The translations under genes and the position numbers were made by a program. A DNA stretch of 64,000 nt from Candidatus Omnitrophota bacterium (GTDB lineage Bacteria; Hinthialibacterota; Hinthialibacteria; Hinthialibacterales; Hinthialibacteraceae). Within the stretch, counting starts at the first letter, position 1, and every line of letters begins with the position of its first letter. Under the pieces are notes generated by a model. The model was given only the letters and a program-made list of their open reading frames with translations, was not told the DNA's origin and did no database searches. Shown here piece by piece: positions 7,957 to 63,447 of this stretch. Location: assembly GCA_040755155.1 (NCBI GenBank), contig JBFMBP010000084.1, forward strand, positions 405 through 64,404, written 5' to 3'.

Positions 7957-10692
7957 ATGGTTCGCATAAGCCAAAATTTTCTCAGCGAGAGGATTTTATA
8001 CAACCTGCAAACCAATATTTTGCGGGTCTCTCAATTGCAGGAACAACTCTCTACGGGACGCCGCATCAATCGTCCCGCCGATGATCCCGTCGATTTCCCT
8101 TCCGCTTTGAATCTGCGTTCGACCATCCAGCAAGGGCGCAGCTATATGAGCAATATTCAGGGAGCGCGCACGAACCTCGAATTGACCGAAACAACGATGG
8201 ACAGCCTTACTGACGTATTGCAAACGATCCGCACTTTGGCGGTGCAAGGCGGAAACGACGCCGATCCCGACGCCCGGCTGGCCATAGCCAATCAAATTTC
8301 TGAACTCAATGGTCAAATATTGGATTTAGCCAACGCCAACTTCAACGGCCAATATATTTTCAGCGGCGGAAAGACCAACGCCCAAGCCTTCGTAGTGGAA
8401 AATGGAATGGTGGTTTATAAAGGGGACGATTTTATGCGGGACGTCTCTCTCAGCCAAGGCGCCAAAGTAACGACCAACCTGACCGGCTTCGATACGTTCT
8501 TGCATACGCCCAATCAAATCACCGCTTCCGTAAGCATCGCCGATGCGTCCGCTCCACTGGCGGAGCAGCTGCGGTTGGCCAATCCCAATTTCCCCAATCT
8601 CCCCCCCAGCCCCGACAGTCCATCGGGAACGAATTTAACGAGATCGGCCAATCCGGACAATTCGCCTACGTCGAAGCCGAACAATTACGCCAGTTTCTAT
8701 ATTCACGACGTGGAAATCAAAGTCGACCTTAGCGTGGATTCATTGCAAGACGTGCGCGACCGCATCAACGCCTCGACCTCCGAAGCCGTAGCGTCGATCA
8801 ACTCCGACAATCAACTCGTCATCACTTCCAAAAGGACGGACGCCTTGGATTTGCGCGACGGCGGCCATCCGATCGGCTTTGAGGCGGATCCGCCCTTTGG
8901 GGCCAATCTCCTTGGCGCTTTGGGAATGTACAAGAGAGTGGATGGATACCGCAATCTGGCGTCGGGTTATCCCGCCGCATCGCCGTTAACGGATGGAACG
9001 GCCTCTCCCGCTCCCGCTCGTTCTCACGTAACGTTAAACAATAGCGCCTTCCTTTTTGCGGCGGCTAATACCGGCCCGTCCGATAACGCCGCATCGCCTT
9101 TTGGAGACAACATGGCGATTACCGATATGGATGCCGACGGCAATGAAGCTTTTAAAGCGAACGGCGATCCCCAATTCATCGATCGCCTGGAAGCTGTCCG
9201 CATTACGATCGACGGCGAAGTCGTAGATATCGATCTGCGTTCTTTAACACAGGGGCGGGATTTCGACGGCGTAGAAGGCAATGCGGACGACGTTCCCGGC
9301 TCGTCGCTCGGCGATTTGCTCGAATTGATTAACAATCACCCCAGTCTAAAAGGCCGCGCTACGGCGTATATCAATTCCACGGGAACCGGCATCGGCGTTA
9401 CGGCGGTCAACAGCACGGATGTTTTTAAAGTCGAAAACGTGCGTAAGTTGTTCGGACGCGACATCACGACCGATGTCGCCATTGATGCAGTGACGGGCGA
9501 GGCGGCGATTAGCCAAACGGATAAACTTACGGAAAATACCAAACTCGACGATCTGCCCGGAGCATTGGTCGATGAAACGGAAGGCGGCAGTCTTGGCGTA
9601 CGCCGCGCCGATCCCATGCCCGCCGGATTGCCGCCCGCCGCCAATAAGGGATTCATTTCCATCCAAAATAACGGGACGACGACTTCCGTCGATTTGCGGG
9701 AGGCGGAAACGATTGGCGATGTGATTCGCGCCATCAACGAATCGAAAGCGGGCGTCCGCGCCGAAATCAACGAATCGGGAACCGGCATCAACGTCGAATC
9801 CGCTGTCGGCAATTCCGAAGAACTCAGCATCGTCGACGTAGGCGAAGGCACAACGGCCCGCGATCTCGGCCTCTTTTCTCCCCCGGCGCCCAAGCGAATC
9901 CAATCCGATCAAGCTGTACTAGCCAATCAGACCGTCGCCGGCAATTATCCTGCGGCGTCGGAAGGCGCATTTCAAATCGAATTGCGCGACGGTTCCGGCG
10001 CAACCATGGATACTTATTCCATCTCAATCTCGAAAACCGATACGATGGCCGATATCGTCAAAAAAATCGACGAAGCGGACGGCCAATCCGGCCCCGGAGG
10101 CGGCGCTATCTCCGCCAACCTAACGGGCGGCGTTTTGAATATCGTGAGCCATTACAACGGCCAAACGATTTTTATCGACTCGGGAAAAGATACGACTGGA
10201 ACGGACGCCGCCACGCGCTTCACGGCGCTGATAGGCATCGATAAATATTCCTACACCCTCGAATCGGAAGTCAATCCGCTGACTCCCTATGAAAGCAAGC
10301 AAAACACCGCCTCAATTTTGGGCGTAGAAGGAAACGGGACGGTTAAGGAAACGATCGAGAAGAACGTCTTTCTCAGCGTCAAGAATCTGGAACAGGCTTT
10401 GCGCAACGACGATACCGATGGCGTAACGCAGGCGCTGGCGGATTTGGATATCGATCTCAACCAGATTCTCGACAAACGCACCACCCTCGGCGGACGAATC
10501 AACCGCCTCGATTCCGCCGAATCCCGCTGGCAGGAAGGCGAGGATTTCCTGCGCCAGCAACTCTCCTCTATTGAAGACGCGGATTTCGCTCAAACCGTTT
10601 CCGATTACACGCTCGCCCAAAACGCCTTCAACGCTTCGCTGCAAGCCGCCGCTAAGGTGATTCAGCAATCGCTGCTCGATTTTTTGGGGTGA
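7957..10692 (+). CDS. flgL: flagellar hook-associated protein 3 FlgL, 911 aa (typical is ~300-400)
   Basis: Flagellin-like N-terminus (MVRISQNF...STGRRINRPADDP) and flagellin-like C-terminus (QNAFNASLQAAAKVIQQSLLDFLG). Position directly after flgK (47-bp gap). Confidence 0.85.
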   Translation: MVRISQNFLSERILYNLQTNILRVSQLQEQLSTGRRINRPADDPVDFPSALNLRSTIQQGRSYMSNIQGARTNLELTETTMDSLTDVLQTIRTLAVQGGNDADPDARLAIANQISELNGQILDLANANFNGQYIFSGGKTNAQAFVVENGMVVYKGDDFMRDVSLSQGAKVTTNLTGFDTFLHTPNQITASVSIADASAPLAEQLRLANPNFPNLPPSPDSPSGTNLTRSANPDNSPTSKPNNYASFYIHDVEIKVDLSVDSLQDVRDRINASTSEAVASINSDNQLVITSKRTDALDLRDGGHPIGFEADPPFGANLLGALGMYKRVDGYRNLASGYPAASPLTDGTASPAPARSHVTLNNSAFLFAAANTGPSDNAASPFGDNMAITDMDADGNEAFKANGDPQFIDRLEAVRITIDGEVVDIDLRSLTQGRDFDGVEGNADDVPGSSLGDLLELINNHPSLKGRATAYINSTGTGIGVTAVNSTDVFKVENVRKLFGRDITTDVAIDAVTGEAAISQTDKLTENTKLDDLPGALVDETEGGSLGVRRADPMPAGLPPAANKGFISIQNNGTTTSVDLREAETIGDVIRAINESKAGVRAEINESGTGINVESAVGNSEELSIVDVGEGTTARDLGLFSPPAPKRIQSDQAVLANQTVAGNYPAASEGAFQIELRDGSGATMDTYSISISKTDTMADIVKKIDEADGQSGPGGGAISANLTGGVLNIVSHYNGQTIFIDSGKDTTGTDAATRFTALIGIDKYSYTLESEVNPLTPYESKQNTASILGVEGNGTVKETIEKNVFLSVKNLEQALRNDDTDGVTQALADLDIDLNQILDKRTTLGGRINRLDSAESRWQEGEDFLRQQLSSIEDADFAQTVSDYTLAQNAFNASLQAAAKVIQQSLLDFLG

Positions 10693-10785
10693 TTGTTTTA
10701 TTTCGAAAGAATTGAGAAATCGTCATCCTTCTCTTATCTCTCGCAATCTCTCTCGAATTCCCTCTTTTCTATTTATAATTGGGGT

Positions 10786-10899
10786 TTGCTGATATATTCG
10801 TAAGTCTTGACAAACGAGTATATTAAGATATAATTTCCTCAAGGAATGCGTAAGAGAATCTGCGTGTATTATACAAAACCTTTGCACATAATTTACAGG
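10786..10899 (+). promoter_or_regulatory. conserved ~115-bp cassette copy 1: near-consensus sigma-70 promoter plus a 12-bp palindromic operator at +1
   Basis: TTGACA at 10807-10812, TATAAT at 10829-10834 with a 16-nt spacer, then the palindrome TTCCTcAAGGAA at 10835-10846. About 90% identical to the cassette at 44022-44133. Confidence 0.55.
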
Positions 10900-10947
10900 T
10901 TGAATTTCTCTAAGCGCAATCATGATTCGATCCTTTCATTGCGATTA

Positions 10948-11178
10948 ATTTATATGATTGAGAATATGATCAATGGATTGGGTTAATGGCCACCCATCCG
11001 TTTCATCTAAAACGATATAATCACTCGCTCCATTTTTAATTACTAATTCCCGTAAATCGGGATCATTGAATTCATGGACTACAATAATTGGCGCGTCTGG
11101 TCTTTTTGCTTTCAAAAAAGAAAATGTTGGATACCCTTTGCTGTCCGGAAGAGTGAGATGGGCATATCCGACCGGATG
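10948..11178 (-). pseudogene. C-terminal half of a response-regulator receiver (CheY-like) domain with no start codon; truncated gene
   Basis: 77-codon open frame without ATG. LPDSKGYPTF...PIIVVHEFNDPDLRELVIKNGASDYIV matches receiver alpha3-beta5 (MPxxDG ... AGAxDYl). A stop lies immediately upstream, abutting the IS. Confidence 0.45.
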
Positions 11179-12470
11179 TTATAGACTCATTCCATGGACA
11201 ACGTTTGGACTGAGAATTGGCAATGTTTAAAGTGTTTTCTCCCAGAGGGCTGGGAGGAAAGGACTCGACAATTAGGCGCTTGGCAACGCAAACCTCGTTC
11301 GATTCCTTCAACGGAATCCCTTTTACGGTTGCTCCTGATTCATTTGGCGGATGGCTGCTCCTTGCGCGAGTCTGTAGTTCGCGCCCAACAAGGCGGGCTC
11401 GCTTCGATTTCCGATGTCGCATTCTTAAAGCGCCTGCGAGCTGCCAGTGAATGGCTGCGCTGGATGGCTGTGGAAATGCTCAAAATCCGCCCCCCCATGC
11501 TTGAAGAGCCTTCGTGGTTGAAGGATTACCGCGTTCGCGTTGTCGACGCAAGCGTGATCTGCGAACCCGGAAGTACGGGAACGGATTGGCGAATTCACTT
11601 CAGTTTCGACTTATTCGGCCTTCGGTGCGATGAATTCTATGTGACAAGGCCTCAGGCGGGCGAAAGTTTTGTGCGCTTCAAGATATTGCCTGGAGACCTA
11701 ATGCTTGGCGATCGCTCCTACGGACGCCTCAAGGGATTTCGTCATGCGACTAGCCGCGGCGGCCACTTTCTGTCGCGTTTGAAAAAAAGCCTTCCAGTTA
11801 AGTGATAGAAGAGGCGAACCCGAGTCATTGGCGCAGATAGTGGAGAAATTGTTCATAGGCGAGGCGGGAAATTGGCCTCAGGCGGCCCAGGCGAAAGGTA
11901 AGCCGGATTTTCCGTTGCGCGTCTGCGCCCTGCGTTTGAGCGAAGATGCCGCCGAACAAAGCATTCGCCGGGCCAAGAAAGAGTTGAGCAAAAACAGCGT
12001 AGTCTCGATCCCGAAATTCTCGCTCTGCACCGTTATATTATTTTAGCTACATCGCTGCCAGAATCTGTTTCCATGCGGCAAGTCCTCGAATTATATTGTG
12101 TACGCTGGCAGATCGAACTGGCTTTTAAACGGTTGAAATTCATCATGGGATTGGGACACCTGCCAAAAGAAGACGATGAATCCGCCAAAACATGGCTTCA
12201 CGGGAAATTGCTCGTATCCTGTCTTGCCCAAGCTATCGTGGATGAAGGACATTTTTTTTCCCCTTGGGGATACCCTTGGCAACGATGAAGACAATTGCGA
12301 ATATTCCATATGGCGCGAACTCTCTTTTGCGTTGCATCTTATACGGCAAGCTGTCAATCCACCGCTTAATATGGCGAATTGCTTAAACCGATGGCCTACA
12401 ATCGCCAGAAACCTGGCAGAGCCGCCACGAAAAAGGAATTACCAAATACATGATTTGGTCGGTATGTAAC
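11160..12470 (+). mobile_element. degraded IS4-family insertion sequence (~1.3 kb) with imperfect terminal inverted repeats
   Basis: Transposase ORF is broken into at least 4 frames. Candidate IRs are atATCCGACCggATGtta (left) and its imperfect complement around 12441-12465 (right). YCVRWQIELAFKRLK is the IS4-type YREK motif. Confidence 0.6.
11194..12469 (+). pseudogene. IS4-family DDE transposase, multiply frameshifted and interrupted
   Basis: Pieces at 11194-11805, 11828-12046, 12073-12288 and 12176-12469 in different frames together resemble one ~400-aa transposase. Confidence 0.65.
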
Positions 12471-13888: not shown

Positions 13889-13997
13889 ACCAATTACAAA
13901 GTCTGGGTGGCAAAAGCAAGGCGAAGCCTGCCTTTGATTTTTTCGCGAGCAGCGCAGGGTGAATACAAAGCGAAGAGCAACCCGCCGCTCTCCGTAC

Positions 13998-14654: not shown

Positions 14655-14740
14655 AATCCAAAAATCGTAACGTAAAAAATGCAGGATTGGGAGAGCTGTA
14701 AGCGGCGAAGCAGCTATCGATTAATCATCGAGGCTCATGC

Positions 14741-14888
14741 AAAATTAATGAAATCAGTCTTTAAATTCTCCCCCCAAACTTGGGGGGAGTTAGAGGGGGG
14801 TTGATTTTAATGGACTTACGTCAACCCCCTCCTGACCTCCCCCAAGTTTGGGGGAGGAATAAATGAATTTTGTATGAGGCTCCATCTT
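14741..14888. repeat. MITE-like element family B copy 1 (~148 bp) with ~17-bp terminal inverted repeats and internal hairpins
   Basis: TIRs gaggctcatgcaaaatt / aattttgtatgaggctc. Internal tccccccaaacttgggggga hairpins flank the gttagaggggggttga core. Reverse complement of the copy at 25888-26034 at about 92% identity. Confidence 0.7.
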
Positions 14889-25749: not shown

Positions 25750-25887
25750 ATAGAAAAGCCGTGGTCAGTGTTCATAAAAGTAGGATGGGTCGCGTTTTTT
25801 GACCCATCAAGAGTTATGGTACGGTTGGACGGCAAAGGCAAGGCGAAGCCTGCCTTTGTTCTTTTTCGCAAATTATGTAGAACCTCT

Positions 25888-26034
25888 TGCAAAATTCTTT
25901 TATTCCTCCCCCATGCTTGGGGGAGGTTAGGAGGGGTTAACGTAAGTCCATTAAAATCAACCCCCCTCTAACTCCCCCCAAGCTTGGGGGGAGAATTTAA
26001 AGACGGATTTCATTAATTTTGCATGAGCCTCATG
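25888..26034. repeat. MITE-like element family B copy 2 (inverted orientation relative to copy 1)
   Basis: Reverse complement of 14741-14888 with the same TIRs (cctcttgcaaaatt / aattttgcatgagcctc) and hairpin cores. Confidence 0.7.
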
Positions 26035-39918: not shown

Positions 39919-41190
39919 ATGAGAAAGATGTTTAGCGTTTTTATTATTGGGATGCTTTGCATCCTAACGGCTTCGGCTTCCTATGCGCAGATCGGCATCT
40001 TTTCCGCTAACGTGGATGTCGATAACGGTCAGCTGGGAGCCGAAGGGAGCGCTTCATACGATCCAGCGACGGATACGTATACCGTGAACGGAAGCGGCGC
40101 GGACGTATGGAACAACACCGGCAGCAATTTCCACTTTGTTTATCGCGAATGGACCGGCGATTTCGATTTACGCGCCGATGTGAGCGTTAGCGGCGGTTTG
40201 GAAACGCAAGCTTGGATCAAAGCCATGCTGTTTTGCGCCGAAGGGCTGGAAGGCTGGTCGAATTACGTGACCACCCGCGTTCGCCGCGACGGCCAGTACA
40301 GCACCCAATGGCGCGGCGGCGGAGAAGCCTCCGACGCCAGTACGGCCAGCGCTTTGCGCGTTACCGGTCTGAATCCGGCGCGTCAGCGTCTGGTTCGAAT
40401 CGGCAACACCTTCTCCACCTACTATTTACATGCAACTACGGGCGAATGGACGCTTATCGATTCCAATGAAGTGGCGCTATCGGAAACTGTTCTGGTTGGT
40501 TTTGGCGTCTGCTCCCATGACTTAGGTCAAATCGCGACGGGGACATTTTCGAAAGTGGCCTTAGGAGCTCCGATCGAAGGTCCCTTCGACCTGACCATCG
40601 ATGTCGACAACGGTCAGTTGGGCGCGGAAGGCGCCGCCGCTTACGACGCCGCCGCCGGCATATATACGATCGATGGCAGCGGCGCGGATGTTTGGAACAA
40701 CACCGGCAGCAACTTCCGTTTTGTGTACAAAGAGTGGAGCGGCGATTTCGAACTGACCGCCGATGTCGCGGTCGCCGGCGGCCTTGAAACGCAAGCCTGG
40801 ATTAAATCCATGCTCTATGCCGCCGAAAGCCTGGATGGTTGGGGCAACTATGTAGCCACCCGCGTCCGGCGCGACGGCCAGTACAGCACGCAGTGGCGCG
40901 GCGGCGGCGAAGCCTCCGATGCCAGCACCGCCAGCGCTCTTCGCGTATCTGGATTGAATCCCGCCCGTCAGCGCCTAACCCGCGTCGGCGACTCGTTCAC
41001 CACATCTTATTTGGACGCGGCTAGCGGCGCATGGAAAAATATCGATACAAACGTAGTCGTATTGCAGGATCCCATCTTTCTGGGATTGGGCGTTTGCTCC
41101 CACGATTTAGGCCAAATCGCAACGGGAACGTTCAGCAATATTGAATTGACCGGCGGAACCACAGACGCAAGCGATTGGCAACTGTATTAA
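39919..41190 (+). CDS. secreted protein made of two tandem ~190-aa beta-rich (jelly-roll/LamG-like) domains
   Basis: Signal peptide. Two units share about 80% aa identity (IDVDNGQLGAEG...GSGADVWNNTGSNF.FVY.EW.GDF...GVCSHDLGQIATGTFS). Strong RBS aaggggagg. Confidence 0.6.
   Translation: MRKMFSVFIIGMLCILTASASYAQIGIFSANVDVDNGQLGAEGSASYDPATDTYTVNGSGADVWNNTGSNFHFVYREWTGDFDLRADVSVSGGLETQAWIKAMLFCAEGLEGWSNYVTTRVRRDGQYSTQWRGGGEASDASTASALRVTGLNPARQRLVRIGNTFSTYYLHATTGEWTLIDSNEVALSETVLVGFGVCSHDLGQIATGTFSKVALGAPIEGPFDLTIDVDNGQLGAEGAAAYDAAAGIYTIDGSGADVWNNTGSNFRFVYKEWSGDFELTADVAVAGGLETQAWIKSMLYAAESLDGWGNYVATRVRRDGQYSTQWRGGGEASDASTASALRVSGLNPARQRLTRVGDSFTTSYLDAASGAWKNIDTNVVVLQDPIFLGLGVCSHDLGQIATGTFSNIELTGGTTDASDWQLY
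40015..41155 (+). repeat. intragenic tandem duplication (2 x ~570 bp, about 80% nt identity)
   Basis: Direct comparison of 40015-40565 with 40590-41155. Confidence 0.75.
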
Positions 41191-44001: not shown

Positions 44002-44021
44002 GCGAGATTCTTCCAATTCGG

Positions 44022-44133
44022 GCTTGCTGAAATTTGTAAGTCTTGACAAACGAGTATATTAAGATATAACTTCCTGAAGGAATGCGAAAGAGAATCTGCG
44101 TGTATTTTTCAAAACCTTAGCACATAAGTTGAG
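44022..44133 (+). promoter_or_regulatory. conserved promoter-operator cassette copy 2
   Basis: TTGACA at 44042-44047, TATAAC at 44064-44069, palindrome TTCCTgAAGGAA at 44070-44081. About 90% identical to 10786-10899. Confidence 0.55.
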
Positions 44134-44174
44134 GTCCTCATGTATCGAAATGCCGCTATGGTCTGAACCGAATC

Positions 44175-44447
44175 ATGGCGAAATTGCCCGCAACGTCCCT
44201 GACGGTAATCGCGCTCAATCTGCTAGTCATGAATCTAGGAAAGTTGTATCGGATGGGAATGGAGAAAGGACTTTTTGTTGGCCTTTTGGCGTATTGGAAG
44301 AGAATCTATGAGGCGTCAGGAAAACTTTGGCAAGTCCTTGGCGAGCTGGGAGCCGCATGGATGCGCCGAAAGGATTCTCAGGCGACGCTATCCGATCGTC
44401 AAGCGAACGGCGCCGCTCCCCTGCTCCGTCCGCTCTTATTTCGGTAG
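44175..44447 (+). pseudogene. C-terminal remnant of an IS5/IS1182-superfamily DDE transposase
   Basis: GLNRIMAKLPATSLTVIALNLLVMNLGKL resembles the conserved transposase tail (G.RrF..RGL.KV..EW.L...AhNL.KL). No N-terminal catalytic part. Confidence 0.35.
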
Positions 44448-44578
44448 TAAAGGTATTTCAGCAAGCCCTATTTGGGATGATAAAAGTAGGATGAATCGCG
44501 CCATATGACTCATCGATTACTCTAATGGCTCAAACAGCGAGGCCTATCCTATGATCTATAGAAAAGCGGGATGATTTT

Positions 44579-46665: not shown

Positions 46666-47511
46666 TTATCTTCCCGCAAGTCCCCGTAAAAGATAATAAA
46701 TATTTTTCAGATATTCGTTTTCTACCGTAACGACGCCCTCTTCGTTCGTCCACCAATCGCTCGCGGAATAGATTTCTTCCGGCGCGGGCGCAATGAGGAT
46801 TTCGCATCCGGTTCCGCGAAACATGCGGTCCATCGTCCATTTCGCTCTTCGCGACTGGAAGAGACCGGAGACGATCAGGATGGAGTTCCGGTTATTTTCC
46901 AGCATCCATTTTTTCAGGAACGCCGCTTCGGCGTAAGTGCTGTAAAAAGGCTCTTGGCTCCAATGCGTCCGTTCGGCGGGAACGCTGCGCAATTTGAAAA
47001 TCGCCTGGCAAATCCGCCCTTCCAAGACGATCAAGTCGCGGTAGGGAATATCGGGCGGAGCGTCAATGGGCAGGCAGATCACGATGTCCGGCGCATAGCC
47101 AGTCTGGAATAATTCCGCCGCCTTTTCCACTCGTTGCCAACCGCCTCCGCCTAGAACGGCGATGGCGTCGCAGGATTTCAGTTTGGATTCGTAAATAAGG
47201 AAAGAGGCGAACGATTGCAGAATGGATTGGCGATGATAATAACCGATCGCTAGAATGAGGACTATCGACGTCAGCGCCAACGCGATGCGCTTCCAACGCC
47301 GCCGGAATTTCGCCAGAGTAGAAGAGGCTTCCAGCCTCTTGATCTGAAAGAGAGCGATTCCTTTCCAACGCCGCCGGAATTTCGCTGGTTTGGATTTCGT
47401 TGGAAGCGGCGATGAAGTCTCGCCTGCGGATTCTGATGAATCCGATAGATCCGGATCGACATCCATTCGATGGCGTTTAAGAATAGACATAGGCATGGTT
47501 ATTAAGGACAA
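46666..47511 (-). CDS. DUF218 (YdcF/SanA/ElyC family) membrane-anchored protein
   Basis: TM helix then CDAIAVLGGGG...VSGLFQSRRAKW is the DUF218 core. The N-terminal region contains an in-frame 72-bp duplication. Confidence 0.75.
   Translation of the reverse strand: MSLITMPMSILKRHRMDVDPDLSDSSESAGETSSPLPTKSKPAKFRRRWKGIALFQIKRLEASSTLAKFRRRWKRIALALTSIVLILAIGYYHRQSILQSFASFLIYESKLKSCDAIAVLGGGGWQRVEKAAELFQTGYAPDIVICLPIDAPPDIPYRDLIVLEGRICQAIFKLRSVPAERTHWSQEPFYSTYAEAAFLKKWMLENNRNSILIVSGLFQSRRAKWTMDRMFRGTGCEILIAPAPEEIYSASDWWTNEEGVVTVENEYLKNIYYLLRGLAGR
47291..47386. repeat. 72-bp in-frame tandem duplication (24-nt direct repeats ttccaacgccgccggaatttcgcc) enclosing a 26-nt palindromic hairpin element
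   Basis: DR1 at 47291-47314 and DR2 at 47363-47386. Enclosed agtagaagaggcttccagcctcttga is identical to 63385-63410. Encodes the duplicated AKFRRRWK peptide. Confidence 0.7.
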
Positions 47512-63382: not shown

Positions 63383-63447
63383 AGAGTAGAAGAGGCTTCC
63401 AGCCTCTTGAATGGAGAAGGAAAGAGCCAGGATGGCTCTTCTACTTT
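63383..63447. terminator. long bidirectional hairpin between rnpB and the convergent methyltransferase gene
   Basis: agtagaagag...ctcttctact outer stem with internal gcttccagcc/gccaggatggc sub-hairpins, T-run after. Contains the 26-mer shared with 47317-47342. Confidence 0.55.

Follow-up and report, generated by a model that had tools for sequence, protein, structure and literature searches.

We are confident that the cassette repeated in the window (the whole stretch of DNA analysed here, 64 kb in length) is the left end of an insertion sequence of the IS5 family, belonging to an ISMae6-like clade. The window holds two partial copies of this element, each in a different context: copy 1 (10782-10894, plus strand) is a solo left end, and copy 2 (44020-44468, plus strand) is a 449-bp internal-deletion derivative in which both ends have been kept. 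Both copies are dead, non-functional relics, and the element they derive from, itself undescribed, is an ordinary representative of a known and very large family of insertion sequences.

To compare the two copies, positions 10777-10894 were aligned with positions 44015-44130 using MAFFT, a repeat finder, and a sensitive blastn search, and 89% identity was obtained over 118 columns with a single 2-nt indel (E~1e-32). Both copies point rightward, and the formal alignment thus bore out the first-pass annotation, which had described two rightward copies of about 90% identity. With the same methods, no third copy of the 115-bp unit was detected in the 64-kb window. The homology between copy 1 and copy 2 starts exactly at the transposon terminus GGG(Y)TTGCTGA, in agreement with the earlier suggestion that the cassette could be the end of a mobile element. 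The left flanks of the two window copies read ATAATTG (10775-10781) and CCAATTC (44013-44019), and several independent insertions of related elements, those whose left flanks were seen in L002, L005, and L010, have the flank AATAAT/TA in common. These flanking sequences suggest a preference of this clade for AT-rich targets, which would explain the few bases of apparent homology outside the terminus of both window copies.

Searches with the cassette itself were made against several collections. An exact 24-mer from the cassette core gave 0 matches in genome contigs and 0 in metagenome contigs, both being collections without the source genome. A degenerate three-block left-end pattern, which matches both window copies as well as L002, L003, and L004, that is, the sequences it was derived from, gave 0 matches in metagenome contigs and 0 in viral contigs. 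An intact copy of this particular element was found neither in the window nor, by cassette DNA, in the public genome, metagenome, and viral collections, and none of the 51 matches that a protein pattern for the remnant ORF yielded in genome contigs was confirmed.

Copy 2 carries the left terminal inverted repeat GGGCTTGCTGAAAT at 44020-44033 and, on the minus strand at 44455-44468, the right terminal inverted repeat GGGCTTGCTGAAAT, which resembles those of L001, L007, L014, and L019. Neither this repeat nor the exact start of the homology at a terminus had been noticed in the first-pass annotation. The repeats are perfect over 14 bp, and 19/21 positions match when they are extended outward. 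Because the 14 nt at 44455-44468 are perfectly inverted, copy 2 is a 449-bp unit bounded by terminal inverted repeats, to be compared with the 1,682-1,749 bp of intact relatives, and it owes its MITE-like shape to the retention of both repeats. TC precedes the unit and TA follows it, and no clean target-site duplication was found around it. Inside the left repeat, on the plus strand, a predicted promoter can be read from the sequence at 44043-44070, composed of TTGACA (44043-44048), a 16-nt spacer, and TATAAC (44065-44070), just as described earlier; our promoter scan does not detect it, owing to the missing final T in the -10 box. It is followed by the dyad TTCCTGAAGGAA (44071-44082), by the leader motif AAAACCTTAGCAC (44111-44123), and by a segment at 44131-44151 that contains the ribosome-binding site GAGGT (44131-44135) and, beginning at 44140, the codons ATG TAT CGA AAT (MYRN), the first of which aligns with the start codons of all relatives. 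Here the Shine-Dalgarno-like sequence noted in the first-pass annotation does lie at a plausible spacing from the ATG.

The structure of the interior of copy 2 accounts for its short ORF. Comparison with the 5' coding sequence of L007 and the 3' coding sequence of L001 places the junction of an internal deletion at 44146-44152 (plus strand), with the microhomology AAAYG and a loss of ~1.3 kb; at this point the 5' sequence GAAATG joins the 3' sequence CAAACGCCGC of the intact gene, and what lay between codon 4 and roughly the last 100 codons of the transposase gene has been removed. The 8-codon ORF reported at this site does exist (44140-44166, encoding MYRNAAMV and a stop). Since MYRN stands at the start-codon column of the relatives, and MYR is the commonest N-terminus among them, this ORF is the start of the transposase entering the deletion junction, and the proposal that it encodes a leader peptide does not hold.

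Between the repeats of copy 2, the transposase gene is reduced to its first 4 and its last ~100 codons, and no other pieces of this transposase were found elsewhere in the window. The last ~100 codons and the stop codon occupy 44148-44447 on the plus strand, and the peptide encoded by 44148-44444 is 74% identical over 99 residues to the C-terminus of P0007 (residues 265-363). The remnant matches the NCBIfam model NF033578 (IS5_1) only weakly, at positions 383-418 of 419 and with an E value of 0.015, which is below the model cut-off, and the match to the C-terminal end of the DDE_Tnp_1_2 domain is also weak (E 0.055). As the match to the IS5_1 model is weak by itself, the assignment of the remnant to IS5 rests on the 74% match to P0007. 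A word search with the remnant returned one match, P0001, a protein of a Candidatus Omnitrophota MAG with the locus tag AB1656_05615, encoded by a 117-aa ORF on a 5,324-bp contig and 66% identical to the remnant. An exhaustive HMMER search with the remnant peptide aligned to P0001 led to P0004, a partial IS5-family transposase, and a search seeded with P0004 led to thousands of IS5-family transposases of 490-540 aa with the domains DUF772 and DDE_Tnp_1_2, P0007 being among them. Because the catalytic core is deleted, copy 2 is a remnant and not a functional IS5 member. The link to an IS5/IS1182-like C-terminal remnant that had been drawn for copy 2 is correct, the cassette being the left end of that same IS5-family element.

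Intact relatives of the clade, with transposases of ~490-540 aa and the domains DUF772 and DDE_Tnp_1_2, allowed the ends of the element to be defined. At the DNA level we compared the loci of P0010, P0012, P0008, P0022, P0013, P0126, P0127, and P0124 and ISMae6 from a Microcystis plasmid, and the full-length relatives considered were L002-L013, L016-L019, and ISMae6, contained in L015. They measure 1,682-1,749 bp and have the termini GGGYTTGCTG...CAGCAARCCC, except for two lineages that have GAGT(Y)TCC...GAGAC(Y)C instead. The slightly longer termini GGGYTTGCTGA...TCAGCAARCCC are found in L002, L004, L006-L010, L015 (ISMae6), and L016-L019, and in L001 and L014 at their right ends. Every intact relative with left-flank sequence has TA at the left flank, and most have TA at the right flank, which probably reflects a 2-bp target duplication; the flanks of the window copies, TG in copy 1 and TC...TA in copy 2, are consistent with decay and not with a clean duplication. 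The element encoding P0008 occurs in several different flanking sequences, and the break lies exactly at TA/GGGC, so that the boundary of the mobile unit is defined independently of the window.

Ten left ends, namely both window copies and those of eight relatives, align nearly gapless from the terminus to the start codon, and the -35 box, the -10 box, the leader motif, and the ATG share columns across this alignment. In the relatives, as in the window cassette, 37 nt separate GGGYTTGCTG from the -10 box, 40 nt separate the -10 box from AAAACC, and the ATG lies 122 nt from the terminus. An nhmmer profile was then built from the left ends of six relatives, with the window copies left out, and used to search the 64-kb window. 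It retrieved copy 1 at 10782-10889 (E 1.3e-10, model positions 3-110) and copy 2 at 44020-44151 (E 5.1e-9, model positions 3-136) as the only two significant matches, and the next best match (E 0.21) was the right repeat of copy 2 on the minus strand. The predicted promoter occupies the same columns as in full-length relatives and is that of the transposase, which agrees with the earlier suggestion that it might not be a host promoter. MYR is by far the commonest N-terminus among the full-length relatives, and MYRN opens P0008, P0010, and P0012.

The leader motif CAAAACCYTTGCAC precedes the transposase ATG by ~17-30 nt and shows almost no variation in this IS5 clade (L002-L019 and both window copies). 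A second conserved element, GTGCA, was observed ~15 nt past the -10 box in the left ends of the clade. Binding of the transposase or of a host factor is one possibility for CAAAACCYTTGCAC and GTGCA. Promoters close to the E. coli consensus recur in the clade, with 12/12 matches in copy 1 and 11/12 in L007 and L011. A fold-back between the repeat-proximal sequence GTGCAAGGG and the leader sequence CCCTTGCAC, which might protect against read-through, was recognized by eye in L002 and L004; it is absent from the window copies and from L007, and for this reason the idea was dropped. In L001, a JGI contig (3300036977) containing the closest relative of the remnant, positions 1-190 consist of ~13 tandem copies of the 15-nt unit AAGAAAACTGTG(Y)(R)G, which run straight into the middle of the transposase gene in place of the 5' half of the insertion sequence, and this array is either a genuine insertion of repeats or a product of misassembly.

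In copy 1, the left terminal inverted repeat GGGTTTGCTGATAT (10782-10795, plus strand) agrees with the ends of ISMae6 and the other relatives (GGGYTTGCTGA) and is preceded by TG at the place where relatives have TA. The features that follow on the same strand are the predicted transposase promoter at 10807-10834, in which TTGACA, a 16-nt spacer, and TATAAT were confirmed and give a 12/12 match to the consensus, the dyad TTCCTCAAGGAA at 10835-10846, located at the predicted transcription start and having 5-bp arms and a 2-nt spacer, and the leader motif AAAACCTTTGCAC at 10875-10887, which is nearly invariant in the ten aligned left ends and also occurs in ISMae6. The homology is clear up to 10894 and may continue in decayed form to ~10918, as 16/31 positions match and ATT (10904) stands at the start-codon column. 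The other reported 8-codon ORF is also present (10922-10948, encoding MIRSFHCD and a stop), but it lies past the clear homology and resembles no transposase N-terminus, which argues against a leader peptide at this site as well. The CAGGT at 10896-10900 is 21 nt ahead of the ATG at 10922, and the mini-ORF has no usable Shine-Dalgarno sequence, contrary to the 5-7 nt that had been claimed for both copies. An extension of the homology to this ATG by means of an 18-nt insertion was considered and rejected, as it performed no better than chance and the gapless alignment puts ATT (10904) at the start-codon column.

The body and the right end of copy 1 are gone, and neither a right end nor further transposase pieces belonging to it were found anywhere in the window. 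Copy 1 abuts the C-terminal fragment of a response-regulator receiver domain encoded on the minus strand (10945-11115). The degraded IS4-family transposase to which the first-pass annotation had drawn attention is indeed located nearby, at 11194-12469 on the plus strand, frameshifted and in at least 3 ORF pieces with NF033592 matches, but it is the remnant of an unrelated element. Downstream of flgL, copy 1, the IS4 remnant, and the response-regulator fragment together make up a small patch of sequence damaged by mobile elements, and the relics mark a region rearranged by mobile elements, copy 1 adjoining both the IS4 remnant and the broken response-regulator gene.

Insertion sequences can have promoters inside their terminal repeats and can give rise to MITE-like deletion derivatives. 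The window element resembles this general pattern, its promoter lying inside the left repeat and copy 2 being an internal deletion with both ends. By analogy with the general biology of insertion sequences, the left terminal inverted repeat GGGYTTGCTGA would be the site at which the transposase binds and cuts, a function assigned from the family. The element would have its own sigma-70-type transposase promoter, situated 26-53 nt inside the end, from which an untranslated leader of ~65-70 nt bearing the clade motif CAAAACCYTTGCAC would be transcribed, followed by the Shine-Dalgarno sequence and the start codon of the transposase (MYRN...). Copy 2 has lost ~1.3 kb internally and its -10 box has decayed to TATAAC, and copy 1 has lost the body and the right end. 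Textbook transposase promoters are weak, and compared with them the predicted promoter of the window element is unusually near the E. coli consensus; signs of autoregulation or of a protection from read-through transcription were not found.

A named relative is ISMae6, an IS5-family element of Microcystis aeruginosa, which is 1,686 bp long and present in 8 copies in strain NIES-843 (PMC2779907, Table 1). Its termini, TA-GGGTTTGCTGAA...TTCAGCAAACCC-TA, match those of the window element, its left-end leader also has the AAAACCCTTGCA motif, and, like the relatives of the window element, its transposase has an MYR start and belongs to the same domain family. There are differences as well: ISMae6 carries the leader motif twice (CCCTTGCATCACCCTTGCATC), the position of its promoter is not the same, the -10 box (TAGAAT) being near the leader motif, and its transposase shares only ~49% identity with P0010, which is a relative of the window remnant. 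Unlike the window copies, one a deletion derivative and the other a solo end, ISMae6 is intact and multicopy. The IS5 elements from metagenomes (P0007, P0127, P0124, P0126, P0008, P0010, and P0012; L001-L004, L006-L010, and L016-L019) have left ends that are colinear with the window cassette at single-nucleotide spacing, and they have TA on either side; the C-terminal tail of P0007 is the one with 74% identity to the window remnant, and L018 and copy 1 both have GGGTTTGCTGATAT..CGTAAGT.TTGA. In contrast to the window copies, these elements are intact (~1.74 kb), none has the TTCCTNNAGGAA dyad, and their DNA identity to the window cassette is confined to the shared motifs.

The first-pass annotation had suggested that the cassette might be a portable promoter module under the control of a repressor, with the TTCCTNNAGGAA dyad at the transcription start as the operator in a classic repressor-operator arrangement. 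This reading is highly improbable. The dyad does overlap the predicted start site in copies 1 and 2, the sole change in it between the copies falls in the unpaired centre, and TTCC/GGAA half-sites at other spacings are found in the leaders of some relatives, such as L016. However, TTCCT(C/G)AAGGAA is not the perfect 12-bp palindrome it was taken for, as it has 5-bp arms and a 2-nt unpaired centre, and the window contains dyads of this class at a density of 0.77 per 118 nt. At least one is present in about half of the shuffles of the unit that keep its composition, so that the dyad alone is no more than what is expected by chance. Eight relatives have unrelated sequence and no dyad at the same alignment columns, its conservation over 10 nt is uninformative because just two copies at 89% identity are compared, and neither copy is adjoined by a regulator gene. 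An even smaller probability attaches to the suggestion that the unit is a small-RNA gene or a leader-peptide attenuator, to which we give almost no credence. A strong predicted promoter, followed by ~60 nt of conserved leader and short ORFs, would suit such a function, but an Rfam search gave no match even at E<=1, the two copies when folded singly adopt different structures whose z-scores range only from +0.8 to -2.3, and a consensus fold of seven leaders reached -0.39 kcal/mol with 0 compensatory pairs, so that conserved or covarying structure was not detected. Moreover, a terminator-like site follows neither copy, and the two peptides have no common sequence, that of copy 2 being the N-terminus of the transposase.

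Other explanations accept the transposon origin of the cassette and assign a continuing activity to it. Instead of being a one-off deletion relic, copy 2 could belong to a family of MITEs that is active, as a non-autonomous derivative of 449 bp that an intact copy elsewhere in the genome mobilises in trans; we regard this as unlikely. Its perfect 14-bp terminal repeats and its short length without a transposase fit this picture, and the ORF of P0001 has its start at the corresponding point of the transposase tail, which could mean that the same short derivative exists in another genome. On the other hand, there is one complete copy in 64 kb, further copies were found in no collection searched, and the left flank of copy 2 is TC and not TA. 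A wider form of this idea, to which the start of the P0001 ORF gives a hint and in which the 449-bp derivative belongs to a still-mobile MITE family of uncultured, possibly Omnitrophota-like, genomes and its portable, near-consensus promoter activates neighbouring genes such as that of the pseudopilin, appears improbable. It is distinctly improbable, too, that the host has co-opted the promoters of the relics, with copy 2 directed toward a gene encoding a GspG-like pseudopilin (44579) and copy 1 antisense over the response-regulator fragment. Both promoters face downstream genes, no terminator-like site is present between copy 2 and 44579, and the promoter of copy 1 still matches the consensus at 12/12 positions; yet in copy 2 the -10 box now reads TATAAC, and this loss of the final T suggests that there is no selection on promoter function, and what lies downstream of copy 1 is likewise made up of dead remnants.

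With the relics read as the remains of an IS5-family element, both sites should be labeled in annotations as IS5-family remnants, one a solo left end and the other an internal-deletion derivative, and not as a regulatory cassette, a small-RNA gene, or micro-ORFs. What stands out in the clade is the fixed layout of its left end, with a near-consensus promoter and the nearly invariant CAAAACCYTTGCAC leader motif.

Additional repeats were observed in the window. Two intergenic copies of ~150 nt, inverted relative to each other with 97% and 88% complementarity and 11 kb apart (14730-14882 and 25880-26031), have two internal palindromes each, with CCCCCCAAACTTGGGGGGAG-like arms; this pair looks like a second family of short repeats, MITE- or REP-like and unrelated to the IS5 relics. 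Three further intergenic pairs contain hairpins: a terminator-like pair at 13904-13943 and 25826-25865 with 88% identity; a pair at 25774-25808 and 44480-44514 with the sequence ATAAAAGTAGGATG..TCGCG...GAC.CATC and 80% identity, the second copy of which lies 12 nt past the right end of the copy 2 relic; and a perfect 28-mer, AGAGTAGAAGAGGCTTCCAGCCTCTTGA, at 47315-47342 and 63383-63410. A direct repeat of 300 nt with 75% identity and a spacing of 585 nt (40015-40314 and 40600-40899) probably reflects an internal duplication in coding sequence. Positions 7957-10692 encode an unusually long homologue of FlgL (hook-associated protein 3), with 911 aa, of which just the two ends match the FlgL model of ~390 positions.
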